54,140 bases of DNA from a virus. Taxonomy: Duplodnaviria; Caudoviricetes. Shown here piece by piece: positions 4,032-43,441 of the stretch. A program made the translations under genes and the position numbers. Position 1 is the first letter of the stretch; each line of letters starts with the position of its first letter. The notes under the pieces were generated by a model. It saw only the letters and a list, made by a program, of their open reading frames with translations, was not told the origin of the DNA and ran no database searches. The stretch is from positions 1 to 54,140 of the IMG/VR virus record IMGVR_UViG_3300033489_000011; one strand, given 5' to 3'.

Positions 4032-4032
4032 A

Positions 4033-15027: not shown

Positions 15028-15029
15028 CT

Positions 15030-16163: not shown

Positions 16164-16174
16164 AAGAAGAAGTT

Positions 16175-26469: not shown

Positions 26470-26506
26470 AAAACTATGAAATAACAAATGAAAAAGGTGA
26501 ATCGAA

Positions 26507-26848: not shown

Positions 26849-26858
26849 CCCACCAACG

Positions 26859-26893
26859 GGCCGGTGAATATCCATTCGCCGGCCTCTTTTTTT
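26859..26893 (+). terminator. Intrinsic terminator ending the accessory island
   Basis: GGCCGGTGAAT..ATTCGCCGGCC followed by T7. Confidence 0.75.
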
Positions 26894-27173
26894 ATCCCGC
26901 CTATGATCAATTCACGCAAAACCCACATCATAATATCCCATCATCTGTTCAATGAATAAAAATCATCCAAATCTTAAAAATTTTGTCAATGGAATGGAAC
27001 GGAGTGGAATGGACGGGCTGGAACTCCCCCTTTTCCCTGTGCGATTCTGTAACCGCATGATGAACCCTTTTGATGGGTGCGCCGCCTTTTTTCACCTCCG
27101 GGGCGGCGCACCCGACGATATCCAAATCTGGGGACAGATTTGAAATCTGTCCCCAGATCCCCAGGGAGGCTTA

Positions 27174-27395
27174 ATGGCCTACACCGAAACCGATCTGACG
27201 AACGTCGAGGCCGCGATCCGCGCGCTGATGTCCGGCACGCGCAAGGTCAGCTTTTCAATGGGCGATAAATCCGTCACATACGCCCAGACGGATCTCGATG
27301 AGCTGCGCGAGCTCAAGCACGATATCCTGGGCGAAGTCCAGACCGTCGCTGCCCGCCCCCGCTTTTTCTTAGCCTCGACCGGGAAAGGATTGTGA
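27174..27395 (+). CDS. Head-tail joining protein, gpW-like
   Basis: MAYTETDL..VEAAI..L.SG..V..GDKSVTY..L.EL; directly upstream of the portal. Confidence 0.85.
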   Translation: MAYTETDLTNVEAAIRALMSGTRKVSFSMGDKSVTYAQTDLDELRELKHDILGEVQTVAARPRFFLASTGKGL

Positions 27396-28951
27396 CGATG
27401 ACACCTTCCTCATCCCAGACTGCTGTCCTGCCGTCCGCGCCCCCCGCGCCCGGCTACCTGCGCACCGTGGACGCCTATGGCAGGCCGATCCCGCGGGCCG
27501 CCGTTACCGGTCCCTTCGAAGGCGCCTCTGCCGGCCGCCGGATGAGCACCTGGGGCACCTCGACCGCGGGGCCAAGCGCCGCCCTTTTCTCATCGCTCAG
27601 GGACCTCCGCTCCCGCTCGCGGGAATTGATCCGCAACAACCCGCTGGTGGACGGTGGCGTCGACAGTTACGTCGCGAACATCATCGGCTCCGGGATCAAT
27701 CCCCGCTGGCAGGTGGACGATCCGGATATGAAAGAGGAGATCCAGAAGCTCTGGGAGGACTGGGTCTCCGAGGCCGATTTTTACGGCATGCTCAATTTCT
27801 ACGGCCTCCAGACCCTGGTCTGCCGCGGCCTGATCGATGCAGGCGAGATCCTCTTTCGCCTCGTTCCGCGCCGCCTCGAAGACGGCCTCTCCGTCCCGCT
27901 GCAACTCCAACTGCTGGAAGCCGACCACCTCGACGAGACATACAACACGATCGCCGCCGAAACCGGCAACGAGGTCCGCATGGGGATCGAGGTGGACGCC
28001 GACGGCCGGCGCGTCGCCTACCATCTCTGGGCGGAGCACCCGGGCGAAACCTTCATCCTGCAAAGGCCGATCCTCGAACGCCTCCGGATACCCGCCGCGC
28101 AGATCGGCCACGTCTATCGCCCGATCCGGGCCGGTCAGATGCGGGGCCGCCCATGGCTCGCCTCGATCATCGTCCGCCTCCATGAGCTCGATCAGTACGA
28201 CGACGCGGAACTGGTCCGGAAGAAGTGTGCCGCGATGTATGGCGGCTTCATTACCGAGGCGATCGGCTCCAACGTCGATCCCACGGCCTGGTTCGGCAAG
28301 AAAGCGGACGATGACAGCGAAGGCCGCGACGTGGTTGCACTCGAGCCGGGGACGTTCCCGATCCTCCCCCGCGGGATGGACGTGACGTTTTCCCAGCCGG
28401 TGGACGTCGGTTCGACCTATGAAGTCTGGATTAAGCAGCAGTTCCGGCAGATCGCCAAGGGGATGGGCGTCACCTACGAGCAACTCACCGGTGATCTTGC
28501 CGGCGTGAACTACTCCTCGATCCGGGCGGGCCTCCTCGAATTCCGAAGGCGAGTCGAGCAGCTCCAGCGCGAGATCCTGATCTTCCAGTTCTGCCGCCCG
28601 ATCGCGCACGCCTGGCTGGATGCCGCCGTCGGGTCCGGCGCGCTTTCGATCCCCGGATACTTCCCGAACCGCCGGATCTACCGCCGGATTAAATGGCGGC
28701 CCGACGGCTGGGCCTGGGTCGATCCGCTGAAGGATCAGGAAGCTGAACAGATGGCGGTCCGGAACGGCTTCAAGTCGCGCGCGAAGGTGATCGCGGAGCG
28801 CGGAGACGACATCGAAACGGTTGACAAGGAGATCGCCGAAGACAATGCCCGCGCGGATGAACTCGGCAACATTTACGATACCGACCCGCGCAAGACCGGG
28901 AAGGCCGGTAAGGGCGCCACCGCTGCCCCACCAGCCGATGGAGGAGAATGA
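27392..28951 (+). CDS. Portal protein, lambda family
   Basis: LRSRSRELIRNNP, LQLLEADHL, GQMRGRPW, LTGDL..VNYSSIRAG, WVDPLKD. Confidence 0.95.
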   Translation: MTMTPSSSQTAVLPSAPPAPGYLRTVDAYGRPIPRAAVTGPFEGASAGRRMSTWGTSTAGPSAALFSSLRDLRSRSRELIRNNPLVDGGVDSYVANIIGSGINPRWQVDDPDMKEEIQKLWEDWVSEADFYGMLNFYGLQTLVCRGLIDAGEILFRLVPRRLEDGLSVPLQLQLLEADHLDETYNTIAAETGNEVRMGIEVDADGRRVAYHLWAEHPGETFILQRPILERLRIPAAQIGHVYRPIRAGQMRGRPWLASIIVRLHELDQYDDAELVRKKCAAMYGGFITEAIGSNVDPTAWFGKKADDDSEGRDVVALEPGTFPILPRGMDVTFSQPVDVGSTYEVWIKQQFRQIAKGMGVTYEQLTGDLAGVNYSSIRAGLLEFRRRVEQLQREILIFQFCRPIAHAWLDAAVGSGALSIPGYFPNRRIYRRIKWRPDGWAWVDPLKDQEAEQMAVRNGFKSRAKVIAERGDDIETVDKEIAEDNARADELGNIYDTDPRKTGKAGKGATAAPPADGGE

Positions 28952-29025
28952 GGAATTGGGGGACAGATTTTAAATCTGTCCCCCAATTCCTCTGCGGCCC
29001 CGCCTGCCGATGGAGGAAACGATTG

Positions 29026-30354
29026 ATGGATAACAAAACCCTATATGCAGCCCATGCGGCCAGGATCTGCAACCGGCCGCTCCTGATCAATCCGGCCTAC
29101 CTGCCCGTGCTGTCGAGGTCGCTGGAGTTGCTGGCAATGGGGACAGATTTGAAATCTGTCCCCAAACTCGTGATCTTCCCGGATGCCTTCGGCGCCGTCA
29201 AGACGGAGGCGAAGTTCGATCTCCAGGACGGCGCCGCGATCATCCGCGTCTATGGCTTCCTCTCCTACCGGACGGAAGAATCGTGGTTTTTCGATGACGG
29301 CGGCACCTCCTACGAGGATATCCGCGAGCAGTTCCAGGCGGCGCTCGTCGATCCCGCCGTCAAATCCATTGTCCTGGATATCAACAGCCCGGGCGGCGAG
29401 GCGGCCGGCGTTTTCGACCTGGTGGATGAGATCTACCACGCCCGCGGCCAGAAGCCGATTCATGCCGTCTTCAACGAGGACGGTTTCTCGGCGGCCTTTG
29501 CCATCGCCTCGGCCGCCGACAAGCGTTACATCTCCCGGACAGGCGCGGCCGGTTCCGTGGGCGTGGTGGCCATGCACCTGGATCAAAGCGGCTGGGACGC
29601 CAACGCCGGCCTGGTCTTTACGCCCATCTATGCGGGAGCTCACAAGGTGGATTATTCCTCCCATGCGCCGCTTTCGCCGGAAGCGAAGTCCGCGCTGCAG
29701 GGAGACATCGACGCCGTGTATGCCATTTTCGTCAGTACGGTGGCCCGCAATCTCGGCCTGACGGAGGCGGCGATCAAGGCCACGGAGGCGGGCATTTTTC
29801 AGGGCAAGAAGGCCGTGGAACTGGGTTTTGCGGATGCCGTCATGCCGTGGAACAAGGTCATGACGAAACTAACCAATAGAAAGAACGGAGGAGTTATGAA
29901 AGCGGAACTTGAAAAGTTGTTCGGCGAGATGCGCGACAAGTTTCTCGCCCTGATCGGCAGCGATCCGGCGGAGGCGGTCAAGCAGGAAGTTGTGACCAAG
30001 GCGGACGCGGAACTCCTGGTCGTCGCCGCGGAAGAGGCGGCCAAAAAAGACGGCCACGCCGCCGGCCTCGTGGAAGGCGCGGAGGCGGGCAGGGCGGAGG
30101 CCCAGGCGCGGGCAATCGAGATCATGGAGATCTGCGCCCTGGCCGGCATGGAAAAGGACGCGCTCGGCTATATCAAGGATACGGCGCTGTCGGCTGAAAA
30201 TGTGCGTCTGAAGGTTGTTGAAGCCCAGGCCGCGGAAGCCGAGCAGACGCGGATCCGGAGTACCGTCTCGGCGACGACCACGGGCGAGCCGAACCCGTTG
30301 ATGGATGACGCGAAAAAGCGGGCGGCGGCCGGCATTTCGCTCGTCAAGAAATAA
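29026..30354 (+). CDS. Prohead protease S49 (gpC-like) with C-terminal scaffold region
   Basis: LDINSPGG, SAAFAIASAA, GSVGV, AVELGFAD; internal GGAGG+ATG near 29896 may give a Nu3-like scaffold; contains a palindrome-encoded MGTDLKSVP. Confidence 0.9.
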   Translation: MDNKTLYAAHAARICNRPLLINPAYLPVLSRSLELLAMGTDLKSVPKLVIFPDAFGAVKTEAKFDLQDGAAIIRVYGFLSYRTEESWFFDDGGTSYEDIREQFQAALVDPAVKSIVLDINSPGGEAAGVFDLVDEIYHARGQKPIHAVFNEDGFSAAFAIASAADKRYISRTGAAGSVGVVAMHLDQSGWDANAGLVFTPIYAGAHKVDYSSHAPLSPEAKSALQGDIDAVYAIFVSTVARNLGLTEAAIKATEAGIFQGKKAVELGFADAVMPWNKVMTKLTNRKNGGVMKAELEKLFGEMRDKFLALIGSDPAEAVKQEVVTKADAELLVVAAEEAAKKDGHAAGLVEGAEAGRAEAQARAIEIMEICALAGMEKDALGYIKDTALSAENVRLKVVEAQAAEAEQTRIRSTVSATTTGEPNPLMDDAKKRAAAGISLVKK

Positions 30355-30410
30355 CACATGGGGACAGATTTCAAATCTGTCCCCCATAAACAGAAAAAGG
30401 AGGATTAAAA

Positions 30411-31085
30411 ATGAGCCATCTGCATGAAGACAACAATTTGAGGGACATCCTGCGGTATGAGGATGACAGTGCGGGGCAGCTTTCCCGTGAGGTCGTGACC
30501 GTCGCGACCGGAGAGACGCTTTATCAGGGCGAGGTCATCGGCAAGAAAACCAAGGCGATTGCCACCACCGGCACGGCGGACGGCGGAAACTCTGGCGGCG
30601 GGACGGTAACCACGGTTACGCAGGGCTTGAAGTCCAAGCTCGGGACGTACACCATCGAGGCCATGACCATTGTTGTTTCCCCGCTGGAACAGGTGTTTCA
30701 GGTTCGGGACCCGGACGGGAATCTCCTGCCGGATGCGCTTGCCGTCGGCGCGTATACAAGCGACCAGATCAACTTCACGATCGTCGAGGGAAGCCCGGTG
30801 ATCGCGGAAGGCGACAAGTGGACTATCGCGATATCGGCAGGCAACGGCCAGGTGACGGCCATTTCCTTGTCGGCGGTGGATGGCACCTCTGAAGCATACG
30901 GCATCCTTACGGAAGATTGCACCGCAACGGCGGCGACCGAGGCCGTGGCTATCGTGAAAGATGCAGTAATCGTGGCAGCGAATGTCGTGTGGCCGGTAAC
31001 TTCGCCGGCTTGGTCAGCGGACGAGAAGGCGGCTGCCCTGGCGCAGTTGGCCGCAAAGGGTATCGTTGCGAGGGCGGAAGCCTAA
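30411..31085 (+). CDS. Head decoration protein (gpD-like, with inserted domain)
   Basis: LSREVVTV..G.VIG..DGTSEAYGIL..AALAQLAAKGIVAR; between protease and capsid. Confidence 0.85.
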   Translation: MSHLHEDNNLRDILRYEDDSAGQLSREVVTVATGETLYQGEVIGKKTKAIATTGTADGGNSGGGTVTTVTQGLKSKLGTYTIEAMTIVVSPLEQVFQVRDPDGNLLPDALAVGAYTSDQINFTIVEGSPVIAEGDKWTIAISAGNGQVTAISLSAVDGTSEAYGILTEDCTATAATEAVAIVKDAVIVAANVVWPVTSPAWSADEKAAALAQLAAKGIVARAEA

Positions 31086-31135
31086 GCGACCATGCGGGGA
31101 CAGATTTCAAATCTGTCCCCTGTGTGGCATAAATA

Positions 31136-31242
31136 ATTCGGGTTTCCCGGCGGGCTGATCCCCCAAAGGGAACGCAAGAAAGAATCAAGGCGGGCTGTAT
31201 GGAGCCATACCTCCATCGGCCCGCCTTTTTCTTTGCCCGGCA
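31136..31242 (+). ncRNA. Structured RNA element, copy 1 (upstream of major capsid gene)
   Basis: 100/107 identical to 41293..41399 with structure-compatible changes; includes a terminator-like stem + U tract. Confidence 0.65.
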
Positions 31243-31299
31243 ATCAATGGGGACAGATTTAAAATCTGTCCCCTGTAAACCAGAAGGAGGAAACGTAAA

Positions 31300-32316
31300 A
31301 TGATTCTCAATCCATTCGATCAAGATGCTTTCAACATGGTGTCTCTGACGCAGGCCATCAACATCCTGCCGAACCGATACGGCAGGGTCGGCCAGTTGGG
31401 GCTGTTCACCGACAAGGGCGTGCGTACGCGCACCGTCATCGTGGAGGAGCAGAACGGCGTTCTGAACCTGCTGCCCACCCTCCCGGTCGGCGCCCCGGGC
31501 ACGCAGAACAAACTCGGGAAGCGTATCGTCCGCACCTTCTCGGTCCCGCACATCCCGCTGGACGATGCGATCCTCCCCTCAGAGTACGAGGGGATCAGGG
31601 AGTTCGGGTCGGAAGCCAACATGAAGGCGCTGGCCGGGGTGATGAACGATCACCTCCAGGTGGCCCGAAGCAAGTTCGACATCACCCTCGAATTCCTTCG
31701 CATGGGCGCCCTGAAGGGGATCATCCTCGATTCCGACGGCTCCACCCTCTACAACCTCTACACGGAGTTCGAGATCAGCCCGGAAACGATAGACTTCGAC
31801 CTCGATACTGCGAGTCCCTTGGTCGATGTTCCGTCCAAGTGCCGCGAGGTCATCCGGTACATCGAGGACCATCTGATGGGCGAGGTGATGACCGGCGTCC
31901 GGTGTCTCTGCGACGCGACGTTCTTCGAGGCCCTCATCAACCACGCGAGCGTGAAGGCTATTTACTCGGGTTGGGCCGGCGCCGCTTCGCTTGCGGGAGT
32001 TGACCCCCGCAGAGGGTTTGCGCTTTCAGGCATCACGTTCGAAGAGTATCGCGGCGTGGCCACCGACAAGGACGGCACCCCGCGGCTTTTCATCGCGTCC
32101 GGCGAGGGTCACTGCTTCCCGGAGGGGACGCAGCAGAGCTTCAATACCATCTACGCCCCCGGCGATTTTATCGAAACGGTGAACACCGTCGGCATCCCGC
32201 TCTATTCCAAGCAGGAGGCGCGGAAGTTCAACCGCGGGATCGATCTCCATATCCAGAGCAACCCGTTGCCGATCTGCTATCGGCCGGCGATCCTGGTGAA
32301 GGTGACAAAGACGTAG
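31300..32316 (+). CDS. Major capsid protein (lambda gpE-like)
   Basis: SLTQAINILP, PHIPLDD.I, TLEFLRMGALKG, QSNPLPIC.RP; AGGAGG RBS. Confidence 0.95.
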   Translation: MILNPFDQDAFNMVSLTQAINILPNRYGRVGQLGLFTDKGVRTRTVIVEEQNGVLNLLPTLPVGAPGTQNKLGKRIVRTFSVPHIPLDDAILPSEYEGIREFGSEANMKALAGVMNDHLQVARSKFDITLEFLRMGALKGIILDSDGSTLYNLYTEFEISPETIDFDLDTASPLVDVPSKCREVIRYIEDHLMGEVMTGVRCLCDATFFEALINHASVKAIYSGWAGAASLAGVDPRRGFALSGITFEEYRGVATDKDGTPRLFIASGEGHCFPEGTQQSFNTIYAPGDFIETVNTVGIPLYSKQEARKFNRGIDLHIQSNPLPICYRPAILVKVTKT

Positions 32317-32388
32317 CAGGCGGGAACGGGGAACCTGGGGACAGATTTGAAATCTGTCCCCAGGTGATACGCGATGGGGGTAAGGCGC

Positions 32389-32697
32389 ATGTCGCTTCGG
32401 GAAGACATACAATCCGCGCTCCCGGATATCTTCGCGGAAGGCGAGGAAGCCGTTTTCACGCCGGCCCAGGGAGAGCAAATACCCTGCATGGTCTTCATTG
32501 ATTTCAACGTGCAGCTCCAGCCGGCGGGCGTCGAGGCGGAGGTCTGGGAACGGGGAACCGTGATCGAGGCGCTCCTCTCGGAACTGGCCCGGGCGCCGGT
32601 CCGGGGCGAAACCTTCACCCTGGCCGGCGGGATCGTATACACCGTCCAGGCGATCCTGGAGAACGACGGCCTGACCGTCAAGGCGGTGGTGACATGA
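32389..32697 (+). CDS. Head-tail connector (FII-like)
   Basis: Position and size; GEEAVFTP..P.RGETF..Y.V..I.ENDG. Confidence 0.7.
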   Translation: MSLREDIQSALPDIFAEGEEAVFTPAQGEQIPCMVFIDFNVQLQPAGVEAEVWERGTVIEALLSELARAPVRGETFTLAGGIVYTVQAILENDGLTVKAVVT

Positions 32698-33302
32698 TCT
32701 CGGTAAAACTCAATCCGATAGACGTCGCCGATGTGAAAGCCATGCTCTCGCGGCTCTCCGCCGATGAGACGAACAAGGCGATGGCGCGCGGGATCAATAC
32801 GACCATGACCGGCGTCCGGACAGATGGCGTGAAGATCTTGTCTGAGCATTATGCCCTCACCGCCACGGCGATCCGCGAATCATGGAAGATCCGGAAAGCC
32901 CTGTTCCGGGATCCCTCCGGCGTCGTTTCGAGCAAGGGGACGTTCATCCGTCTGATCAAGTTCGGCGCGCGGCAGAACAAGTCCGGCGTCTCCGTCAAGG
33001 TCCTCCGGAGCAAACCCCGCGCGACGGTCGAGCACGCATTCATCGCGAAAATCAGAGGGGATCAGAAAGAGGAGCAGGTCTACTGGCGCAAGTATAAAGG
33101 CCCCCATAAAAAGCCGGTCGCCGGCCGGGCCTATGCGCGGATGCCGCGTGAATACAAATTCCCGGTCCAGGCGCTCTATGGCCCACGCATCCAGGACCAT
33201 CTCGGCGATCCGGGGATCATGGGCACCTTGACCAAAATGGCCGGGGAGAGGCTGAGCAAGAACATGGAGCGTGAAGTGGATTCGATCTTGAGGGGGTACT
33301 GA
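32694..33302 (+). CDS. Minor tail/neck protein (gpZ-like)
   Basis: Basic; AMARGINTT..FGARQ..GVSVKV..HAFIA..LYGPRI. Confidence 0.8.
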   Translation: MISVKLNPIDVADVKAMLSRLSADETNKAMARGINTTMTGVRTDGVKILSEHYALTATAIRESWKIRKALFRDPSGVVSSKGTFIRLIKFGARQNKSGVSVKVLRSKPRATVEHAFIAKIRGDQKEEQVYWRKYKGPHKKPVAGRAYARMPREYKFPVQALYGPRIQDHLGDPGIMGTLTKMAGERLSKNMEREVDSILRGY

Positions 33303-33769
33303 TGACCGACACCATCCGGGAGCTTGTCATCCAGAGCATCGTCGCACGGGCCGCCGTCATCCTGCATGTCGCCTCGCCGCCCAGCGGCTACGAGACCGAC
33401 TGCGGGGAAACGGTTCTCCGCGCGCGCCCGAAGGTGGGGCCGGATGACCTTCCCTGCATCGTCGTCTGGCCTCAGATCGAGGAGGCGGAAAACACCCATG
33501 GCCAGTCCCGCCACCGGATGCCGGTCCAGGTCGACGGCCTGGTGAAATTCGGCGCGGTCGATCCGTCGATCATGGCGGAGCGCATCCTGGGCGACCTGAT
33601 CAAGTGCTTCACCTCGCCCCTGTGGAGCCGCTCCCCGGACTACATCGAATCGATCGTCTATCAGGGCGGCGGCGGCCAGGCCCCGGAAGAAGGTTCCGTA
33701 TCCGTCGGCGCGCAGGCGAAATTTCTGGTCACCTATTGGACGAACACGGGGGATCCGTACACGCGATGA
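33302..33769 (+). CDS. Tail terminator (gpU-like)
   Basis: TIRELVIQ..DLPCIVVW..ILGDLIK..Y.T..GDPY. Confidence 0.75.
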   Translation: MTDTIRELVIQSIVARAAVILHVASPPSGYETDCGETVLRARPKVGPDDLPCIVVWPQIEEAENTHGQSRHRMPVQVDGLVKFGAVDPSIMAERILGDLIKCFTSPLWSRSPDYIESIVYQGGGGQAPEEGSVSVGAQAKFLVTYWTNTGDPYTR

Positions 33770-34287
33770 ACGAGCCGAAACCCATATTGATCATCACCGG
33801 ATCGGCGCCCTGCGTGATGGAAGACATTGATGCCCTCGGCCATGGGGACAGATTTGAAATCTGTCCCCATGGCCATGGCGACTGGATGGCCGTCGGTCTG
33901 GATGCCGTGGACAAGTATGCCTGGCCGATCAAATATGTCGTCACCTATCACCCCGTCGAGATCCCGCAATTTAAACCGAAGCGAGCGAAGATCGGAGGGA
34001 ATACGGACTTTCTCGTGATCGCCCATAAGCCGGAGCCGGGCGTTGATATCGTGGAGCCATACGAGTCGCCTACCGGGTCATCCGCCCTTTGCGGGGCGAT
34101 GGCGGCGATCAGAATGGGATATGAAAGGATCATCCTATGCGGCTGCCCCTTACTCGATAAGAATTACATCACCTTTCAAAAGGGATGGGAGAAAAAGAAG
34201 GAAATCGTAAAAGACAAGGTCCGGTCGATGTCGGGATGGACGAAAGATTTTCTTGGCGCACCGACGAAGGAGTGGCTTGATGCTTAG
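33766..34287 (+). CDS. Rossmann-like transferase (Maf/DUF115/GT29-like), with in-frame palindrome insertion
   Basis: LIITGSAPC, GSSALCG..A..MGYERIILCGCPL, VRSMSGWT. Confidence 0.55.
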   Translation: MNEPKPILIITGSAPCVMEDIDALGHGDRFEICPHGHGDWMAVGLDAVDKYAWPIKYVVTYHPVEIPQFKPKRAKIGGNTDFLVIAHKPEPGVDIVEPYESPTGSSALCGAMAAIRMGYERIILCGCPLLDKNYITFQKGWEKKKEIVKDKVRSMSGWTKDFLGAPTKEWLDA

Positions 34288-34308
34288 TTACAGCGGAGGC
34301 TTTAGAAC

Positions 34309-35991
34309 GTGGCGCTAACAATAGCTATAGAAGGTAAGGGCATTATTGCTAACGCAGATGCGACTCCGGATTCCGCAATGGCTGGTAGTCTATGGGACGA
34401 GCTCGGCGCGGGGACAGACGCCTTCACCACTTATGTCCGTTTGTATGGAACAACCAGTTTCGGCGGCGCTTATTCTGCGAAGGCTGGCTGGCAGTATTAT
34501 GACATCGGCGCGGCAAACGTCCTCGACTTCACTCAGAGTCCCGCCGGAGCGCAGAAGGATCAGTATATTTGGCTGTGGGTATCGGTCACGACCATTGGAT
34601 TGATTCAGACCAAGGCCAACAAGGGATTAACTATACGCATTGGTTCAAGCCTTACGGACTACCGCGAATATGTCATCGCTGGAAGTGACGATGCGAATGA
34701 GTGGAAGGGCGAATGGAAATGCTTCGTGATGGACCCCACGCTGCCAAGTACCTCCGGAATGGGCGCTGGAACACTTAACCTTGCGGCAGTCCGCTACATG
34801 GGATTCTACATTGACAATACGGCCTTGTTTGCCAGTCCTTGCATCTTTATGTCGCAGATCGCAGTCGGTAAAGGGCTTCGGATAACTGGTGATAGCACAA
34901 CGGCCTGGGAGGATGTTCTTGCTTGGTGTACCGATTATCCGAACCGTGCATGGGGTATGTTCACAGAAAAAGAAGGCATCGCTTTTGTACTGGGCAAGGT
35001 ATTTATAGGCGACACGGCGCAGGGGGCGGCCACCTCGTTTAGGGGCTACGGTAGCATCCTTAAGTGGGCGAAGTCTGAATTTTGGGATGGTAGCGCATGG
35101 GTTCCTTCATACCCCGTAACCGCCTGCGGAATTGAAGTGCAGGATAATGACAGCTTTCCAACGACTTTCGAGGATGGAATTATAGTCGGGACAGATAGTG
35201 GTCGCGGAGGAAGCCAGTTCATTGGTGATGGTACCACAACAGTTTCGTTTGATTTATATGCAGGAGGCCATGCTGATTCAATGACGGCCTGTTACGGAAC
35301 TGCTTTCAAGAAAATGAAAGGGACGTTCAATTTTGGGAATGACAGCGATCATAAGGTGTATGCCTGTAGCTTTGTGGCATGTAGTCAAGTCGATCCTGTT
35401 GGCGGCCCTGAGATAAGGAACTGCATTTTTGCGGAAACGGCAGACGCGGAAGGCGCGCTGTTATGGAACGCCAGTATCAACATAGCGGATTGTAAGTTCA
35501 TCGCTAACACAATCGGCGCGGCGATCCGGCACCTTGTTGGCGGTCCCGCATCGCCTCCCGCGCATTACGACTATGATGCGTTGACGTTCTCTGGCAATAC
35601 CTACGATATAGAAAATGCTGCCACAACGCCGAACTTCTACATTGATATTGACAGGATCAACGGCTCGAATCCAGATAGCGGGAAGATAAACAATTCAGCG
35701 GGCGGCACCACTGTTCTTCTTGAGATCGGCGTGACGCTGCAATTGACAGGCCTCGTTAGCGGTTCTGACATAACGATCCTCGATGCAGGGACTGAAGACG
35801 AGCGCGTGAATGTGCAGGAAAACTCGGGCACGACTTACAATTACGGCTACGATTACGCCGCGAGCGACTACGTGGATATCGGCGTATTCAAGGCGGGATA
35901 CGTTCCTTATTATGTGAGGAATTACTTGTTGGCAGCGACGAATGGAAGCCTGCCTATCGCGCAGGAAATAGACAGATACTATCTTGAATAA
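34309..35991 (+). CDS. Putative virion protein (beta-rich)
   Basis: 560 aa, G/T/D/S-rich, in the morphogenesis operon. Confidence 0.6.
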   Translation: MALTIAIEGKGIIANADATPDSAMAGSLWDELGAGTDAFTTYVRLYGTTSFGGAYSAKAGWQYYDIGAANVLDFTQSPAGAQKDQYIWLWVSVTTIGLIQTKANKGLTIRIGSSLTDYREYVIAGSDDANEWKGEWKCFVMDPTLPSTSGMGAGTLNLAAVRYMGFYIDNTALFASPCIFMSQIAVGKGLRITGDSTTAWEDVLAWCTDYPNRAWGMFTEKEGIAFVLGKVFIGDTAQGAATSFRGYGSILKWAKSEFWDGSAWVPSYPVTACGIEVQDNDSFPTTFEDGIIVGTDSGRGGSQFIGDGTTTVSFDLYAGGHADSMTACYGTAFKKMKGTFNFGNDSDHKVYACSFVACSQVDPVGGPEIRNCIFAETADAEGALLWNASINIADCKFIANTIGAAIRHLVGGPASPPAHYDYDALTFSGNTYDIENAATTPNFYIDIDRINGSNPDSGKINNSAGGTTVLLEIGVTLQLTGLVSGSDITILDAGTEDERVNVQENSGTTYNYGYDYAASDYVDIGVFKAGYVPYYVRNYLLAATNGSLPIAQEIDRYYLE

Positions 35992-36003
35992 AGGAGAACG
36001 AAG

Positions 36004-37674
36004 ATGGCAAAGATAATTGATCCCGATGATTTGGTACCAAGCTCGACTGAGGGAAACCTCGGCGTTGACGGGAACATCTGGCTTGACACGACGCTCAAGA
36101 CCTTTGAGCTCGCACCGTATGGGGAACTCGCTGCAAAGACCGGTGTGACAGGGAATGCGATATGGGCAAAGTTCATCGACCTGTGGGCTACCGCATCGTA
36201 TCAACCATTCCCGTTCCCCATGAACATCCTCGATGCCCGGTCCGGTCAGTATATCTTCGGGCAGGACCCGGGAGGTTCCTACAATGGATGGAAACCGGAA
36301 GGGGATGTAACCCGGCAGATGATCCGCGATGCAGGATGGTCAGAGTATAACGCTTCGGGCGATCATCAACGGCAGTATGTCGGCATTGTGGCTCTCGCAT
36401 CCGGCTTTCCGGGAGGAGCGCAGCTTTATTATCAGAAGGCAACAGCGGAAGCCGCGGCTGACTTCACCTTCGATGATGCGCCGAATGAGGCGATCCAAGT
36501 ATTCGGGGATGTCTATAATGGCGACTTCGATGATCGAACGTTCTTTAAGTTGTTCTGCCGTGAGGAAGCGTATCTGTATGATGACGCTGTTTTGGGCGAC
36601 GTCGGTGAAACGGCTACCGGTGCCTACAAGATTCAGTTGCCGATTGCGGTCGGCTCTGATCTCAATATCACCGACACGGATACGAATGTTGGAGCAAACT
36701 CTCCCTACACGCAGATCGTCATAAAGTATTTCGACACGGCCTATCAGAAGGACGTTGACCTCGACGCAACGCCCCGGAGCTTCGGCATCGTTGTCGATGT
36801 AGGCACACATTCGGGAGTGGACGGCGTAGTGGTGGCTTCCCCGGCGAATATCTTGACAACGGCGGAAGGCGGGATCACGCCTGATCTGTATAACGGCGGG
36901 ACCCTGACCATCCACACCGGGACGGACGCAGGAAGAATTGTCAGCATCACCGATTGCGATGCGACCACTATCACAGTCGATGCTTCACCCGCCCTTTCGG
37001 CAGACACCGGCCTTTGCTTCACGGCGCAAAGAGCGACCCCCATTGTGGCGACGCTGAAGGAGATTTACACGAAGGTTCAGTATCAGTTGCGGCAGGATTC
37101 CAATATCAATGACATTGGAGGAACGATTAACGGTAAGACCGCCGACCTGCTCCTGAATTTCGTCGGGCCTACACTGATCTGCGGCTTTTATGAACCGGCG
37201 AACTCCGAGGGCGGCGGCAGCGGTGTTATGGTCGAGGGGATCAAGGCGGCTGATATCAATAGCATCATCTTCCATGACAACGGTGATGTTGAGCGTGAAT
37301 ACCCGTATGCCTCTGCCGGAACGCTTTACTTCAATGCGGCCTTGACGCAGGGCGGCACAGGCTATTACCGGATGTATTTCACGACCACGGTTGGTGGTGA
37401 CGACTATGGGGAGGCAACCGCCATCACGGTCAACGATGCTGACGGGAACCCAATCGCCGGGACCATTACAGGAGCAAGCAAGGCGTTCACCTTTGACTAC
37501 ACCGGGAACACGCAGGGAGGCCGGGTGTTGTCGCCGTTGCTTGATGCGGACGTAACGGTTGTCGCGGGAAATGCCGGGAGCGCAAAGCCGGTTGTGGCAA
37601 CGGGAACCATTGACCAAAGTAAGACCATTTCGATCACGTTGACGGCTGAAACCGATAGAGCGTATCTGCCGTAA
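36004..37674 (+). CDS. Putative virion protein
   Basis: MAKIIDPDDL.., acidic T/G-rich; AAGGAG RBS. Confidence 0.6.
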   Translation: MAKIIDPDDLVPSSTEGNLGVDGNIWLDTTLKTFELAPYGELAAKTGVTGNAIWAKFIDLWATASYQPFPFPMNILDARSGQYIFGQDPGGSYNGWKPEGDVTRQMIRDAGWSEYNASGDHQRQYVGIVALASGFPGGAQLYYQKATAEAAADFTFDDAPNEAIQVFGDVYNGDFDDRTFFKLFCREEAYLYDDAVLGDVGETATGAYKIQLPIAVGSDLNITDTDTNVGANSPYTQIVIKYFDTAYQKDVDLDATPRSFGIVVDVGTHSGVDGVVVASPANILTTAEGGITPDLYNGGTLTIHTGTDAGRIVSITDCDATTITVDASPALSADTGLCFTAQRATPIVATLKEIYTKVQYQLRQDSNINDIGGTINGKTADLLLNFVGPTLICGFYEPANSEGGGSGVMVEGIKAADINSIIFHDNGDVEREYPYASAGTLYFNAALTQGGTGYYRMYFTTTVGGDDYGEATAITVNDADGNPIAGTITGASKAFTFDYTGNTQGGRVLSPLLDADVTVVAGNAGSAKPVVATGTIDQSKTISITLTAETDRAYLP

Positions 37675-37684
37675 GGAGTAGCGG

Positions 37685-38305
37685 ATGGGGATGACGTTTG
37701 ATGGGCCAACGAAGGTAATCACGCTGACGACCGGAACAGTGGCCGTCAGCGTGAGGGACCTGTGGAGCAGGTGGGTGGACTGGTTTCTGACCGGTGATAA
37801 TTCCAAGTATCTGCCTGCGTTTGCCCAAGTCGGAGGCGATCCCATTGACGAGGCGGAAGGTCTTTACATTCCGGTCTATGCCTTCCTGATGAACGGGTGG
37901 AAGGTGAAGCCGCAGGAGGCGAACCATACGCTCACGGTCAGCGACGGCATCCTCCTGGTGAACGGCGGCGGCGATCCGTTCAACGACACGGACGGGAGTT
38001 ATGTCGTCAGAATCAATTATCAGCAACCTGTTCAAGCGATAAGTTTCAGCACGGAAGGCGGCGGTGGACCGACCTCGGCGGCTATTGCGGATGCTGTTCT
38101 GACAGAGCTTATCGCGGATCATAAGGCTGCGGCGGGGAGCCTGGCGGCTGCTATAAACGAAATCTGGCAGCGGCAGGCGGGAGTTAAGCTCGTCGCCGAT
38201 AGGGATTTGAATACGATCAAGGTCTATGACTCAGATGGCTTGACCTTGCTCTTTACGCTTACAAGGACAACGGTGGGAAATGTTGACACTTACACAAGGA
38301 GCTGA
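37685..38305 (+). CDS. Putative virion protein
   Basis: TFDGPTKVI..DLWSRWVDW..GGDPID..FLMNGW. Confidence 0.6.
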   Translation: MGMTFDGPTKVITLTTGTVAVSVRDLWSRWVDWFLTGDNSKYLPAFAQVGGDPIDEAEGLYIPVYAFLMNGWKVKPQEANHTLTVSDGILLVNGGGDPFNDTDGSYVVRINYQQPVQAISFSTEGGGGPTSAAIADAVLTELIADHKAAAGSLAAAINEIWQRQAGVKLVADRDLNTIKVYDSDGLTLLFTLTRTTVGNVDTYTRS

Positions 38306-38625
38306 TGATGCCCGATCAGGTGGTATACGCAACGGGCGGCTTGCTGACGGACAACGGCCAGGCGGATCTCACGGCGTTCGCGTCGGCGGGGCTGTTCTCC
38401 AGGATCGTCGTCATCGTGGTGTTGCCGGAGAGGGAGCTTTATGCCCTCCACCGGCAGTTGAAATTACTGTCGGAAACCCGATTATTCGAGCTGACGGGGC
38501 TCAGGGTTGTCGTGCTGTATGCGAGGGAAGCGGAGCCTGAGATGGAAGCGGCGGACAGGAACGTGACGCTGATGGCGGGCGATCGGAATTTCGAGCTGAT
38601 AACCGATGAGGAATTAACATGGTAA
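38305..38625 (+). CDS. Hypothetical protein
   Basis: Translationally coupled. Confidence 0.5.
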   Translation: MMPDQVVYATGGLLTDNGQADLTAFASAGLFSRIVVIVVLPERELYALHRQLKLLSETRLFELTGLRVVVLYAREAEPEMEAADRNVTLMAGDRNFELITDEELTW

Positions 38626-38930
38626 GGTCATTCCCCGACAAGCAGCCCTACGAAGAGTTTTTTGTCGTGTTCAATTTCTATCGGTTGCTCTCGCGGACAA
38701 ATGACTCCATCGCAACGGTGGCGGAGCTTAAAGCATTTGACGCCGACGGCGTTGACCAGACAACCTCTTTCATTGACGCCGGCGAGCAGGTGATAGCGAC
38801 ACCGCGCGTGTTCGCTTGGGTGAAGGGAGGAACGCCGCAGAGATACCGTCTCGTCTGCAAGATCACGACGACAGGCGGCAAGAAATGGCAGATGGTCGGA
38901 TATCTGACCGTAGTCGAGGGGATAACATGA
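38619..38930 (+). CDS. Small virion adaptor-like protein
   Basis: KQPYE..FNF..WVKGGT..YRLVCKITTTGG. Confidence 0.55.
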   Translation: MVRSFPDKQPYEEFFVVFNFYRLLSRTNDSIATVAELKAFDADGVDQTTSFIDAGEQVIATPRVFAWVKGGTPQRYRLVCKITTTGGKKWQMVGYLTVVEGIT

Positions 38931-39520
38931 ACCAGCATGCCGAATGGAAGCAGCGCTTCGAGCGCGTATGGGACCCCAAAGGACAGGGGAAATACCGTAT
39001 GGGATCGCCCGGGCAGCGGCTTGTCCCGCGCTTTATCGAATGGGTGCCGAAGGGGTCGGTCGTCAACGAATACGGCTCGGGAACGGGCCGGGCCGTGGTG
39101 GAGTTGTGCAACGCCAGGCCGGACGTCCGGGTGAACATGGTGGACATTGCCGAGAACGCGCTTGAGGCCCCGGCGAAGGCGCTCGTCGGGGGCCGGGCGA
39201 CGTTCACCCTGTCGGCGCTGTGGGGCCTGCCGGAGAAATTCCCCGTGGCGGACTGGGGGTACTGCATCGATGTCCTGATGTGCGTCCCTCCGGACCGGCT
39301 CGACGACATCCTCAGGGAGATCCGTCGGACGTGCAGGAATCTGTTTGCCCAGGTGTACGACTGGGCGGACATCCGGCTCGACATCGACTACACGACGATC
39401 AAGGAAGGCCCGGAATGGTGGTACAGCAAGTTTTCTTGGTATTGGCCCACCGTGTCGAAAGTGAAGAGCAACGAGCACGCGCGGCGGTATATCTACCTGT
39501 GCCGGGGGGAGGAGCAATGA
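38927..39520 (+). CDS. Class I SAM-dependent methyltransferase
   Basis: VNEYGSGTGR, MVDIA, ADWGYCIDVL. Confidence 0.85.
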   Translation: MNQHAEWKQRFERVWDPKGQGKYRMGSPGQRLVPRFIEWVPKGSVVNEYGSGTGRAVVELCNARPDVRVNMVDIAENALEAPAKALVGGRATFTLSALWGLPEKFPVADWGYCIDVLMCVPPDRLDDILREIRRTCRNLFAQVYDWADIRLDIDYTTIKEGPEWWYSKFSWYWPTVSKVKSNEHARRYIYLCRGEEQ

Positions 39521-40026
39521 CGGGTTTGCCGGAATTCACTGTGCCGTTGAGCGAGGCCATGATAAAGACGGTGGCGCTGGGGAACGTCTACCTGAGCACC
39601 GAGCCGGACGTCTGCGTCGTTGGCAGCCCGCTGGCGCGCGGGTATTCGCTCTTCATTGCGGGCAAGGAAAAAGAGGGCCGGGCCGTCATCGAGGATTTTC
39701 TTGTGCGGGTGTTTCCTTCGCGCCGTGGAGAGATGTCCACACGGCAATTCGTCAATCAGATCTGTGCCGAAAAGGGATTGCCCCGGCCGATCGCGAACGA
39801 AAGGGTCGCTCCGGAGATTTTGAGGGAGGCGGCCGGCAGGCGGTTCGACAGGTTGCACCTGCCCCTGCTGCGGAGCATCCTGGCCAGGGGATATCGGCCG
39901 GAGCTCTCCCATCCCGTCACCATGCGGCAATCCGGCAACCGCTTCCTGGTGGTGGACGGGAAGAACCGCTGCTCGATCCTCGCGGCCCTGGGCGAGGAAG
40001 TCGTGTCAAACGTGAGGTTGTTATGA
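39517..40026 (+). CDS. ParB/Srx-like domain protein
   Basis: LLRSILARGY..PVT..LVVDGKNRCSILAALG. Confidence 0.6.
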   Translation: MTGLPEFTVPLSEAMIKTVALGNVYLSTEPDVCVVGSPLARGYSLFIAGKEKEGRAVIEDFLVRVFPSRRGEMSTRQFVNQICAEKGLPRPIANERVAPEILREAAGRRFDRLHLPLLRSILARGYRPELSHPVTMRQSGNRFLVVDGKNRCSILAALGEEVVSNVRLL

Positions 40027-40577
40027 TTCGATACCTGGACCGCGCCGGCTACGAGGCGAATGCCGTGAAGGACGATAAATGGCGCAGTCATAAGGCCCGG
40101 TGGCCCTATCATGTCGCGGCGATCGCCACCGTCGAATCCCTCGGGATCAAAGACGCGGGCGAGGTCCTGGAGATCGGCGCCTTCGGTGCGCAAATCGTCA
40201 TCGGAAGCGACACGATGGACCTGCCGCAGGGGGACTGGGAAATACCGGGGGCGCGATCGACGTATGCTCATGATGCGCGCGAGCTTCCCTGGCCGATAAA
40301 AACGGGAAGATATTCGCTGGTTGTCGCCCTGCGGGTATGGCATCACCTGTTTCCCCGGCAAAAGGAGTGCTTCCTCGAGGCGAAGCGGGTTGCGAAGCAC
40401 GTCCTGATTGTCTGCCCGGAAAAGGAAATCGTCGGCGTTGGGATCCGGCGCCGCCAATGGGATGACTGGAACGGAAGCCCGCCGATTCGCCAGGCGGAAT
40501 TGGAAGGGTGGGGCCGATTATATCTATTCAAGGGAGGACTCAATGGTAACGGTATGCTGCATCAAGCAGGGGAGTAA
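40023..40577 (+). CDS. Methyltransferase-like protein
   Basis: VLEIGAFG, HDARELPWP..YSLVVALRVWHH..F.EAKRVAK. Confidence 0.75.
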   Translation: MIRYLDRAGYEANAVKDDKWRSHKARWPYHVAAIATVESLGIKDAGEVLEIGAFGAQIVIGSDTMDLPQGDWEIPGARSTYAHDARELPWPIKTGRYSLVVALRVWHHLFPRQKECFLEAKRVAKHVLIVCPEKEIVGVGIRRRQWDDWNGSPPIRQAELEGWGRLYLFKGGLNGNGMLHQAGE

Positions 40578-41277
40578 GTACGGCCCGGAATACGTCAATA
40601 TCCTGCACGCGATGGTGGTGCGGAACACCTTCATTTTTGATTGGGATTTCGTCTGCTTCACGGATGACGCCGCCGGCATCGATCCGAAGATCCGGATCGA
40701 ACCTTTGCCGCATCCGGCGGTCGGATGGTGGGTGAAGATGGGGCTCTATCAGAAGGAAGTGCCGGGGATCGCCTCCGAGAAGCTGCTGTTCCTCGATCTG
40801 GATGTGGTCATTCCCGGATTCCTGGATCCCGTTCTGATATTCGAGTCCGACCATGCCTTGATTAAAGACTATCCCGCCGCCTATCTTCCCCCGGGCAATC
40901 ACCACCAAAAGGACGGCAACACCTCCGCGATTCTGCTCACAGTCGGATCGCGGGTGCATATCTGGGAGGCCTTTCTACGGGAAAAGAACCCGGCCGGGCG
41001 GTATTGGAGCGAGCAGGACTGGCTAAACAAGAAGCATCCCGGCTCATTCGACCTGCTGCCGGAGTCTATGGCGCAGAGCTACAAGCTGCACAAGCTGCAG
41101 GACAGGCGCCCGGAGTGCAGCATTGTCATGTTTCACGGGAAGCCCAAGCCGGCAGATTGTGGTGGTTGGGTTGCGGAGGAGTGGAGAACAAGCCGCCGGA
41201 AACGGCATAGGAAGAGCAATAGGGGACAGATTTCAAATCTGTCCCCGGAGGAGGATAAGAACAGGGGACAGATTTGA
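40543..41277 (+). CDS. GT-A fold glycosyltransferase (GT8-like)
   Basis: CIKQGSKYGPEYV, CFTDD, GWWVK, LFLDLDVVI (DxD), SEQDW, FHGKPKP; C-terminus reads into the palindromes. Confidence 0.85.
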   Translation: MVTVCCIKQGSKYGPEYVNILHAMVVRNTFIFDWDFVCFTDDAAGIDPKIRIEPLPHPAVGWWVKMGLYQKEVPGIASEKLLFLDLDVVIPGFLDPVLIFESDHALIKDYPAAYLPPGNHHQKDGNTSAILLTVGSRVHIWEAFLREKNPAGRYWSEQDWLNKKHPGSFDLLPESMAQSYKLHKLQDRRPECSIVMFHGKPKPADCGGWVAEEWRTSRRKRHRKSNRGQISNLSPEEDKNRGQI

Positions 41278-41292
41278 AATCTGTCCCCGGAG

Positions 41293-41399
41293 ATTCGGGT
41301 TTCCCGGCGGACTGATCATCCAAAGGGGACGCAAGAAAGAATTAAGGCGGGCTGTATGGAGCCATACCTCCAACAGCCCGCCTTTTTCTTTGCCCGGCA
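41293..41399 (+). ncRNA. Structured RNA element, copy 2 (upstream of tail tube gene)
   Basis: Paralogue of 31136..31242; bracketed by palindromes. Confidence 0.65.
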
Positions 41400-41488
41400 G
41401 CAGCCCCAGGGGACAGATTTCAAATCTGTCCCCTGGAGGAGATCAAAAATAACGCCGGAAGCGGCAAAACATGAAGGAGGAAATAGCG

Positions 41489-42514
41489 ATGTCAACAGCA
41501 GAGAACGCGAGAATTGATTATGAGTGCGGTCAGGATTCGGTAGCCATGACGGCGCTCACCGATCAGGGAGATCACAAGGATTTCCGGGGCCCCGATCCTT
41601 TGTGGTCTGGAAAGGCGGGCTTTTCGCCTAACGTAAAACCGGACGGCCTTGCCACCGGCGGGGCGGTTACTCCCGGAACGGCGGACGACACGGTCGACGT
41701 CGCGGCGCTGACCTGTTACCTGAGCGGCGTGCTGACTTCGGTCAACGCCGATCCCGCAAACGCAGTTGTCCGGCCGGCGGCATCTCCGGCAGGCCTGAAG
41801 GTTAAGCACTCCATCACGGTTACGTCGGCGGGTGCAATCGCTGTCGTGGCGGGTGTGGACGGCGCGACCTTTTCGGCCACCCGTGGCGCGGCAGGCGGCC
41901 CTCCCTACATCCTGCCGGATTCCATCGAGATCGCGCAGGTCTGGCTTACGGATGATGCGGCAGCGCCTGTGACCGCCGACGAGATCAAGCAGGTGGTCGG
42001 TTCGTCCTGCGAGCGCTATGACTATCCGACCTGGGAGGAAGCGAAGTTCAACGTGGATGCCGGGATCATCGGCAACGCGGGGATCGTGTTCGCCTCGGCC
42101 CTGCCGATGAGTCATTCGATCGCATCCCCGGAGACCCCCGAAACGAAGCAGGTCTTCGCGGAGTATTACGAGCCGGTGTTCACCGACGTGCCGAAGTCCT
42201 CGGATTTTGTGCCTCCGGAGACGAGCTACACCACGAGCTCCAAGAAGATTTACGGCGCGACGCTCGGGGCGACGTCGTCTTCGCTGAACCAGGGATCGTT
42301 CACCGCATACCTGCAGGATGGAATTTCGGACGGGATTCTCGGCCTCAAGGGCGACGTCCTGTTCTTCAAGTTCTATCAGAGCAAGTTCAATTCGCTGCCG
42401 TATCTGCTCTCACAGGGGATTCTCGGGGTGTCGCGCCAGTTCCCGGCAGGGGATCAGATCGTCGCGGCCTGCACGATTTCGCCTGAAACGGCGGCGGTGG
42501 AAGTGACCGGATAA
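41489..42514 (+). CDS. Major tail (tube) protein
   Basis: AGGAGG RBS; directly upstream of the frameshifting chaperone; A/T/S-rich. Confidence 0.7.
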   Translation: MSTAENARIDYECGQDSVAMTALTDQGDHKDFRGPDPLWSGKAGFSPNVKPDGLATGGAVTPGTADDTVDVAALTCYLSGVLTSVNADPANAVVRPAASPAGLKVKHSITVTSAGAIAVVAGVDGATFSATRGAAGGPPYILPDSIEIAQVWLTDDAAAPVTADEIKQVVGSSCERYDYPTWEEAKFNVDAGIIGNAGIVFASALPMSHSIASPETPETKQVFAEYYEPVFTDVPKSSDFVPPETSYTTSSKKIYGATLGATSSSLNQGSFTAYLQDGISDGILGLKGDVLFFKFYQSKFNSLPYLLSQGILGVSRQFPAGDQIVAACTISPETAAVEVTG

Positions 42515-42603
42515 AAGCACGGCATGGGGACAGATTTCAAATCTGTTCCCGGCTAAGCACATCGGGGGACAGATTTCAAATCTGTCCCCAAAAGGAGAAA
42601 AAA

Positions 42604-43429: not shown

Positions 43430-43441
43430 GGGGAAAGGCAA

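Follow-up and report, generated by a model that had tools for sequence, protein, structure and literature searches.

A REP-like palindrome of probable bacterial origin repeated in the virion-assembly module of a temperate phage

Introduction

The closest described systems to the repeat reported here are the "TIRtrons" of Di Nocera et al. (2013), in which RAYT-like genes, called "TIRYT", are enclosed by flanking inverted repeats with the motif GGGGWSAS (PMC3733652, in the portion of its text available). TIRtron repeats make up moderately abundant families, in part self-complementary, whose members stand alone, in dimers or in clusters, and the same portion of the paper notes repetitive extragenic palindromes (REPs) in frame within genes (PMC3733652). 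Here, we describe a 25-bp palindrome, hereafter P, of the form GGGGACAGATTT-N-AAATCTGTCCCC with arms of 12 nt each, which is repeated in the genome of a tailed phage (Duplodnaviria; Caudoviricetes; IMG/VR record IMGVR_UViG_3300033489_000011). The window denotes the whole stretch of DNA that was analysed, all 54,140 bp of this record. We consider P to be a REP-like miniature mobile element of bacterial origin that was put into the phage by a host enzyme acting in trans, with a probability of roughly 80%.

Several features place P close to the TIRtrons. Its arm GGGGACAG fits the GGGGWSAS motif of their repeats (PMC3733652, available part), and a common arm variant, GGGGACGG, departs from the motif at one position. 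A RAYT-like gene of the Y1-HUH type lies between terminal inverted repeats in both systems, and in both, as far as the accessible text of PMC3733652 describes the TIRtrons, the repeat overlaps the 3′ end of the gene. P also recurs genome-wide, in 59–131 copies that include tandem pairs and arrays. It differs in that fusion of the 12-nt ends has given a perfect palindrome of 25 bp, and in that it is identical across several phyla and dense in a phage genome, where it also stands inside phage genes.

P likewise resembles the REP/REPIN-RAYT systems, whose short, hairpin-forming repeats number tens to hundreds per genome, are often clustered and mostly extragenic (in the window, 9 of 13 P copies are intergenic), and rely on a Y1-HUH transposase gene. 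As in those systems, a transposase gene is flanked by P (3 + 5 copies in Marinobacter genome G011, and in contigs L301–L303). RAYTs are described as absent from horizontally mobile agents in the available part of one preprint (bioRxiv 10.1101/2021.07.10.451892), and in Pseudomonas fluorescens Pf-5 prophage regions show a correlation with REP absence (PMC7416659, partial text). A RAYT is a single-copy, vertically inherited chromosomal gene whose repeats stay within one lineage, whereas identical P is found in several phyla and in 13 viral contigs.

Short conserved sequences repeated at gene junctions are also known from phages, namely the stoperators of Cluster A, the start-associated sequences of Cluster K and the 17-bp palindromes of Cluster O mycobacteriophages, and the PeSL cassettes of T4-type phages. 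These are lineage-specific, common to related phages and tied to phage regulators, whereas P is absent from close relatives of the phage and abundant in bacteria. Rickettsia palindromic elements (RPEs) are 100–150 bp long, against 25 bp for P. Like P, RPEs are palindromic repeats in frame in still-functional genes, but they belong to a CGTC-tagged class with no dedicated transposase, at least in the sections of PMC3733652 that could be consulted, whereas P has a transposase family. Like miniature inverted-repeat transposable elements, P has transposon-derived terminal inverted repeats and encodes nothing; such elements also have target-site duplications, whereas P shows no consistent flanking direct duplication, and P is well below the 70–300 bp usually quoted for such elements (PMC3733652, excerpt).

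Results

Number, form and distribution of P in the phage genome

The record is a whole IMG/VR virus genome (CheckV completeness 100%; 162-bp terminal direct repeat). A pattern search allowing up to three mismatches recovered 13 P sites between 27130 and 42589, each where an initial annotation made from the letters of the window had listed it, and none elsewhere in the record. Twelve copies are perfect and only the copy at 42526 has a single mismatch, while the central base on the plus strand is C in six copies, G in five, and T and A in one each. No match was obtained in 100 dinucleotide-preserving shuffles of the sequence. The description in the initial annotation, 13 copies with near-invariant arms and a free centre that are limited to the late-operon stretch, was thereby borne out.

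Nine separate loci spanning 15.46 kb hold all 13 copies. The chance that nine random points on a 53.98-kb circle would fit into that arc is ~4 × 10^-4, for an arc picked post hoc. P density is 0.24 per kb over the whole phage genome and 0.84 per kb within the module, or ~7–10 times and ~30 times the density in P-rich bacteria (0.02–0.04 per kb), respectively. When folded, P is predicted to form an 11-bp hairpin, the same from either strand, for which DNA folding gave −10.7 kcal/mol and RNA folding −17.2 kcal/mol.

A six-frame search of the window with the Pfam profile Y1_Tnp gave no match at E ≤ 1, in agreement with the earlier remark that no transposase is evident. The window also had no Rfam match at gathering score and nothing in a tRNA scan, and the stretch 27000–43000 had no megablast match among cultured-phage records. 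A literature search for the P arm sequences returned unrelated primer matches only, none of them in a relevant context.

P in bacterial chromosomes

A scan with one genome per species located exact P in at least 120 loci from many phyla. Judged by record titles, the loci listed include Syntrophales/Syntrophaceae, Desulfobacterales, several Gammaproteobacteria (isolates of Marinobacter and Halorhodospira among them), together with Nitrospirota, Coprothermobacterota, Chloroflexota, a Clostridium metagenome-assembled genome (MAG) and others. Five distant genomes contained 69, 59, 74, 71 and 131 copies (≤2 mismatches), and a reversed-pattern control had no match in the same five. The initial annotation had suggested a count in the host genome as a check; in these five bacterial genomes the count is high, at 59–131 copies per genome. 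Within one genus, P was present in 7 of 81 genomes sampled (75, 71, 22, 25, 5, 3 and 1 copies; ≤1 mismatch); the four high-copy genomes are 90–94% identical at a test locus and thus represent one clade.

Bacterial P copies are often tandem, 37–55 bp apart, and occur alongside half-sites and variants whose centre differs in length. Among the fetched loci, 10 of 14 two-mismatch variants were symmetric compensatory pairs. Orthologous P copies in Marinobacter likewise showed ACAG/CTGT changed to ACGG/CCGT in both arms together, with the centre differing freely. Because such changes are compensated in both arms, the hairpin, and not a protein operator, appears to be the constrained form.

No recurrent neighbour gene was found within 2.5 kb of P in 132 loci, where the largest protein cluster touched seven. 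Flanking inverted repeats of at least 3 extra bp were observed at 24 of 134 distinct bacterial copies (~18%) and at 10 of 29 viral copies, compared with ~1.6% expected, which suggests insertion into hairpin loops or later growth of the stem.

The window stretch 26500–43500 was also checked against two DNA sequencing runs. In the source soil sample, short-k contigs broke at P, depth was higher in bins containing P, and many foreign contig ends joined there. These breaks and foreign joins indicate that P is abundant in other genomes of the sample. Separately, the bacterial locus L130 carries P copies on either side of an apparent 5S rRNA gene and terminator (positions 100–330, recognised by eye), and P also lies beside highly expressed host genes.

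P arms as the ends of a transposase cassette

A ~760-bp cassette with a gene for a RAYT-like Y1-HUH tyrosine transposase has the arms of P as its terminal inverted repeats. This link emerged with the RAYT-like protein of contig L264 as the query and not with the Pfam Y1_Tnp profile. In Marinobacter genome G011, an intact homologue of 219 aa carries NHVHLIV as its HUH motif and RYVELNP as its tyrosine motif; its gene is flanked by P copies, three to one side and five to the opposite side, and has its stop codon within a P. At least five transposase homologues are present in this genome. Three metagenome contigs (L301–L303) with homologues at least 89% identical show flanking P arrays of 5 + 3, 8 + 1 and 1 + 2 copies. 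An adjacent Y1 transposase gene, which the initial annotation had suggested looking for, was thus found as a RAYT-like gene between P arrays, in G011 and in L301–L303.

Metagenome homologues that are 71–76% identical have single inverted copies of a related end, GGGACAGAT(T/C)TATTTT, ~135 nt upstream and ~50 nt downstream of the gene, and Marinobacter homologues at 71–78% identity also carry ends of this related type. More distant metagenome homologues had neither P nor GGGACAGAT ends.

From the order of G003, a genome whose record is titled Syntrophales MAG, 201 genomes were sampled. All 10 loci with ≥45% identity to the Marinobacter enzyme had one or both P arms in flank position (exact or ≤2 mismatches), and at six of these both arms were exact or within one mismatch. 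At loci of ≤43% identity, P arms were in flank position at 0 of 20. In the cassette, a unit of ~760 bp, GGGGACAGATTTATTT.. precedes the gene and ..AAATAAATCTGTCCCC spans the stop codon. Its open reading frame (ORF) at the cassette loci of this order is ~231 aa long, with the HUH and tyrosine motifs both invariant in the alignment. An internally deleted cassette with the same ends occurs in G004 (record titled Syntrophobacterales). The arms of P being equal to the cassette ends, P can be read as two 12-nt cassette ends joined through one base.

The G003 homologue scored 74.5 bits on the NCBIfam model REP_Tyr_transpos, which has a cut-off of 80 bits. It is a 230-aa RAYT-like gene on L264, with flanking inverted repeats ending GGGGACGG...CCGTCCCC. 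This locus (positions 1161–1923) is a sister element with the flanks AAAT-GGGGACGGTTCTA.. and ..TTAGAACCGTCCCC-ATTT, and a 46-bp gene-less hairpin copy of it (2607–2652) lies 700 bp from the 230-aa gene. A GGGGACRG core is common to several transposase/repeat pairs in this one genome. It was also observed that the transposase ORF ends within its own terminal repeat at L275 1499–1523 (Marinobacter) and at L389 1443–1455 (order of G003), so that the repeat supplies the stop codon of the transposase, as P does for two ORFs of the phage. Among the 2.9 million viral contigs of IMG/VR, the transposase family was represented by one weak, partial match of 53 aa; its near-absence there agrees with action in trans, and with the described absence of RAYTs from horizontally mobile agents (bioRxiv 10.1101/2021.07.10.451892).

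P in related phages and other viral contigs

Twelve other IMG/VR contigs carry exact P, and only one of them, L022 (= L181), has further nucleotide similarity to the window. A set of 49 related phage loci was collected, 25 through the capsid protein and 24 through a 341-aa protein of the module. P was found in one (L181) and was lacking in the other 48, so the comparison with related phages that had been proposed at the outset gave positions that are not conserved. The closest relative (L146/L192, capsid protein 88% identical) has no P, and specifically none at the portal–protease junction or in the N-terminus of the protease. Between decoration and capsid genes, the closest relatives have a spacer of ~35 nt, compared with ~215 nt in the window, where it consists of P, a 107-nt element and P. 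L181, which is more distant, shares P with the window at two junctions at which closer relatives have none; both have a P pair after the 341-aa gene, with different spacers.

Gene order is the same as in the relatives across every P junction. A chimeric contig joined at P copies was considered as an artefact, and this synteny argues against it. In the unrelated viral contig L016, P stands in frame inside the portal gene (..PRP-GTDFKSVP-SLG..), and in six other P-bearing viral contigs it lies next to or in structural genes.

This distribution bears on the suggestion in the initial annotation that P is an operator array that silences or loops late genes. In a fuller version of this reading, a dimeric DNA-binding protein of the phage would bind the array to silence, loop or organise the late genes. 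The perfect dyad symmetry, the free central base and the tandem pairs at 39–42 bp start to start would suit such a role, and two candidate proteins with ParB_N and HTH_ParB domains are encoded just upstream of the P module:

23748–24608, ParB-like protein
24668–26428, ParB-like protein

Identical P copies, however, occur 59–131 times in chromosomes of different phyla and flank transposase genes there, and 48 of the 49 related phage loci lack them. Some copies are located inside genes, and variants changed in both arms keep their pairing but would weaken both half-sites. Given its abundance in bacterial chromosomes and absence from related phages, we regard P as very improbable as an operator array and did not retain this part of the annotation.

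Position of P copies relative to the virion genes

Genes of the module were assigned with PHROGs and Pfam as follows:

27174–27395, gpW/Ad1
27392–28951, portal
ORF from 28948, S49-type prohead protease, with the likely start ATG 29026 preceded by a GGAGGA ribosome-binding site
30411–31085, decoration protein
31300–32316, major capsid protein
32374–32697, FII-like head-tail attachment protein
32694–33302, Neck1
33766–34287, conserved gene of unknown function
40408–41277, glycosyltransferase
41489–42514, 341-aa protein of no named family (phrog_30644, function unknown; nothing in Pfam)
45428–48097, tape measure protein

The identities gpW/Ad1, portal, protease, decoration, capsid and FII-like attachment were confirmed, while the "tail tube" of the initial annotation received no family assignment and its "chaperone" is a tentative label; the 341-aa gene labelled tail tube is the probable major tail gene. 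The P copies, for which no strand is assigned, are positioned as follows:

27130–27154, P copy 1: centre G; 19 nt upstream of the gpW/Ad1 start
28959–28983, P copy 2: centre T; 7 nt past the portal stop and 42 nt upstream of protease ATG 29026
29139–29163, P copy 3: centre G; in the protease gene, in frame as GTDLKSVP (..LLAM-GTDLKSVP-KLV..)
30360–30384, P copy 4: centre C; 5 nt past the protease stop and 26 nt upstream of the decoration gene
31096–31120, P copy 5: centre C; 10 nt past the decoration stop, left of leader copy 1
31249–31273, P copy 6: centre A; right of leader copy 1, 26 nt upstream of the major capsid gene
32337–32361, P copy 7: centre G; 20 nt past the capsid stop and 12 nt upstream of the FII-like attachment gene
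33844–33868, P copy 8: centre G; in gene 33766–34287, in frame as GDRFEICP (..ALGH-GDRFEICP-HGHG..)
41222–41246, P copy 9: centre C; at the 3′ end of the glycosyltransferase ORF, translated as GQISNLSP
41264–41288, P copy 10: centre G; 42 nt start to start from copy 9, left of leader copy 2
41409–41433, P copy 11: centre C; right of leader copy 2, 55 nt upstream of ATG 41489 of the 341-aa gene
42526–42550, P copy 12: centre C; the mismatch copy, 11 nt past the stop of the 341-aa gene
42565–42589, P copy 13: centre C; 39 nt start to start from copy 12 and 14 nt upstream of a 170-aa gene

The initial annotation had placed the copies mostly at gene junctions. This holds for the nine intergenic copies and not for the two in frame inside genes (29139 and 33844) or the two overlapping ORF ends (41222 and 41264). 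Both in-frame copies coincide with stretches that vary in length among homologues: copy 3 lies in an N-terminal stretch of the protease, and copy 8, which has a 6-bp flank extension, lies in a variable loop. A TGA at the centre of copy 1 terminates a 63-aa ORF (26952–27143), and one at the centre of copy 10 is the stop of the glycosyltransferase ORF. Five copies begin 5–20 nt past a stop codon, namely that of the portal, the protease, the decoration, the capsid or the 341-aa gene, and the next start codon follows several of the intergenic copies after 12–26 nt. Copy 2 is flanked by 9 extra bp of inverted repeat and copy 7 by a 4-bp extension (ACCT/AGGT); many relatives have a hairpin of their own at the copy 7 site.

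Around copy 2 (window 28930–29028), the stretch with the ribosome-binding site (..GCCGATGGAGGA) is duplicated imperfectly over ~20 nt (17 of 20 nt identical), with one duplicate closing the portal gene and the other upstream of the protease start. The duplication re-creates both signals after insertion, and long staggered repair or selection are candidate origins.

These positions raise the question of an RNA role, in which P would be kept mainly as hairpins in the late transcript that tune the amounts of capsid, decoration and tail proteins through protection of upstream segments from 3′ exonucleases, attenuation of read-through or processing. The predicted stability of the RNA hairpin and the five copies shortly past stop codons are consistent with it. 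Furthermore, unrelated local hairpins stand at the post-capsid site in 9 of 19 relatives, compared with ~1 expected, although some of these loci are near-duplicates; hairpins were scored by local folds when they lay within 80 nt and ranked in the top 5% for stability among the windows of the same locus (earlier windows of 60 nt, which were too short, gave 4 of 19). After the tail gene, L192, L182 and L172 have unrelated hairpins of their own and other closer relatives have nothing, while the window and L181 have their P pairs with different spacers. The ~30-fold density in the module relative to P-rich bacteria and the proximity of P to structural genes in the six other viral contigs point the same way. 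The transposase, on the other hand, already explains the invariance of the arms, the two copies in genes and the two running into ORF ends look tolerated rather than designed, and 48 of 49 related loci do without P. The association with structural genes may also reflect sampling bias, given that the recognition of short viral contigs favours those with structural genes. As the main reason for the presence of P, the RNA role is possible yet rather unlikely. It is compatible with an origin of P as a host mobile element, by exaptation, and is plausible as a secondary role.

The 107-nt leader and possible exchange with other DNA

Two of the P-bearing junctions contain a further structured element:

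31136–31242, plus strand, 107-nt structured leader, copy 1, upstream of the capsid gene and flanked by P copies 5 and 6
41293–41399, plus strand, 107-nt leader, copy 2, between P copies 10 and 11 and upstream of the 341-aa gene

The two copies are 93% identical, and the 3′ half has a 17-bp hairpin followed by a U-run, which resembles a terminator. Seven predicted pairs show changes on both sides, and the leader has no Rfam match. The closest relatives lack it at the decoration–capsid junction, and homologous leaders, found by an exact 29-nt core, lie upstream of structural genes in five other viral contigs (L195–L199) with no P at those places. The leader is an element separate from P; it may serve late genes as a leader or as an antitermination cassette, and may move from one junction to another. 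A composite transposon of the form P–leader–P was considered and rejected, the linkers from P to leader being different in the two copies.

The duplicated leader is also relevant to a further explanation for the copies of P, in which P arrived by recombination with host DNA or with P-bearing phages and was then multiplied by slippage or unequal recombination. Duplication within the module is evident from the leader and from two tandem P pairs; arrays in Marinobacter grow and shrink through tandem duplication and deletion of units, and the two junctions shared with L181 but not with closer relatives would fit exchange between phages. Recombination, however, would have had to reach nine loci with unrelated flanks while gene order stayed as in the relatives at every junction; the different linkers show that P–leader–P was not copied as a block, and the in-frame copies in two conserved genes are left unexplained. 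We consider this origin improbable.

Other features of the phage genome

Outside the P module, a tyrosine integrase is encoded:

2844–4118, minus strand, tyrosine integrase

Other phage genes encode an HTH protein, a D5-type primase-helicase, a DnaG-like primase and a DAM-like/GNAT protein. Based on the integrase and the other gene content, the phage is temperate. It also encodes a complete three-domain DNA polymerase III beta clamp (14811–16163). The gpA-type large terminase (15965–18238) is ~9 kb upstream of gpW/portal (27392), with the DAM-like/GNAT protein, a DnaJ-domain protein, the two ParB-like proteins and a DUF488 protein in between; this separation is an unusual split of a lambda-like head module. 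Noncoding sequence downstream of the terminase (18751–18987) contains three to four copies of a ~23-nt repeat, GCAAACCCTTTACCACACAGGAT, and a perfect 43-bp tandem duplication with two small hairpins is located at the start of the DAM-like gene (19157–19242).

Discussion

Of the three possibilities raised in the initial annotation, the data favour the one in which a Y1-HUH/RAYT-type enzyme acting in trans moved a REP-like element of the host: the arms of P equal the ends of a transposase cassette, arrays of P flank the transposase gene, copy number in bacteria is high, and close relatives of the phage lack P. The abundance of P in bacterial hosts and its unconserved positions among related phages speak largely against both an operator array and RNA hairpins as its primary purpose.

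P would have arisen from the terminal repeats GGGGACAGATTT and AAATCTGTCCCC of a RAYT-like cassette, fused through a single free base. IS200/IS605 and RAYT enzymes act on single-stranded hairpins. Single-stranded P would fold into a hairpin, which, going by the literature on these two groups, is the type of substrate that Y1-HUH enzymes recognise. Phage DNA would be open to a host enzyme both as a prophage and during replication, and the 13 copies were most likely inserted by such an enzyme in a bacterium in which P was active, probably of the order of G003. Insertion in trans is proposed because the phage has no Y1-HUH enzyme of its own, and transposition by a RAYT-like enzyme is what the architecture of the cassette suggests. 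Insertions that broke genes would have been lost, and copies that were intergenic, or in frame in loops of variable length, would have persisted. Copies may then have been retained preferentially where a hairpin in the transcript was useful, immediately past the stop codons of those virion genes with the highest expression; alternatively, a preference for pre-existing intercistronic hairpins may have added to the pattern. Insertion in trans, the proposed host and any influence on late mRNA are inferred.

As to that host, prophages with a capsid protein 67–75% identical to that of the phage were present in 5 of the 201 genomes of the order of G003. Such prophages indicate that the host is probably a member of this order, and we suggest one with an active P system. 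One of the five genomes has 14 exact P copies, none of which is on the prophage contig.

Several observations weigh against a mobile element inserted in trans. The Pfam family Y1_Tnp as a whole did not track P across 81 Marinobacter genomes, and P was near none of the 12 Y1 loci first sampled. Five cassette-bearing genomes from the order of G003 have 0, 1, 0, 4 and 0 exact P copies, and in the P-rich genomes G003 (74), G107 (14) and G060 (25) no cassette with P-type ends was detected, although the genomes compared are draft assemblies in which short-read contigs break at P. For the TIRtrons, too, the available text of PMC3733652 notes that transposase genes and repeat families are not obviously correlated. 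Across 134 bacterial and 29 viral copies there was no target-site duplication and no consistent target, and four related Marinobacter genomes yielded no clean pair of near-identical empty and filled sites; their sites were mostly shared, and Marinobacter sites change by tandem gain and loss. P also differs from REPs in having no unpaired GTAG (or CGTC) tag, with TGTC/CGTC present only within the paired arm. Finally, neutral insertion alone is insufficient because the density is ~7–10 times that in bacteria and all copies are in one module. The initial annotation had taken the confinement to argue against random insertion; the confinement is real, and is compatible with target preference or with selection.

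The class of repeat to which P belongs is already known, and P is not a phage regulatory code by origin. What is new is the fused 25-bp form, its identity across phyla, and its high density in a complete phage genome that includes translated copies. The density of P in phage virion operons was far above that of every host chromosome examined. Its high density in a complete phage genome runs against the usual lack of REPs in prophage regions (PMC7416659, as far as its accessible text goes). REP absence has even been used to flag prophages (PMC7416659, same portion), and here 13 copies are present in a complete temperate phage genome. More generally, the locus is a caution that a striking and invariant palindrome array in a phage may not be a regulatory code.

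A speculative extension, which we think will rather probably not hold, is that temperate phages carry, and perhaps amplify, a REP-like family, and that the phage has co-opted its hairpins as intercistronic transcript elements. If true, carriage by phages would explain the identical 25-mer across Desulfobacterota, Gammaproteobacteria, Nitrospirota and other phyla, and would contradict a strictly vertical, chromosome-resident view of REP-type repeats. The P system could thus serve as a test case for whether Y1-HUH enzymes seed phage DNA in trans, whether phages move repeats between hosts, and whether hairpins set the stoichiometry of late proteins.

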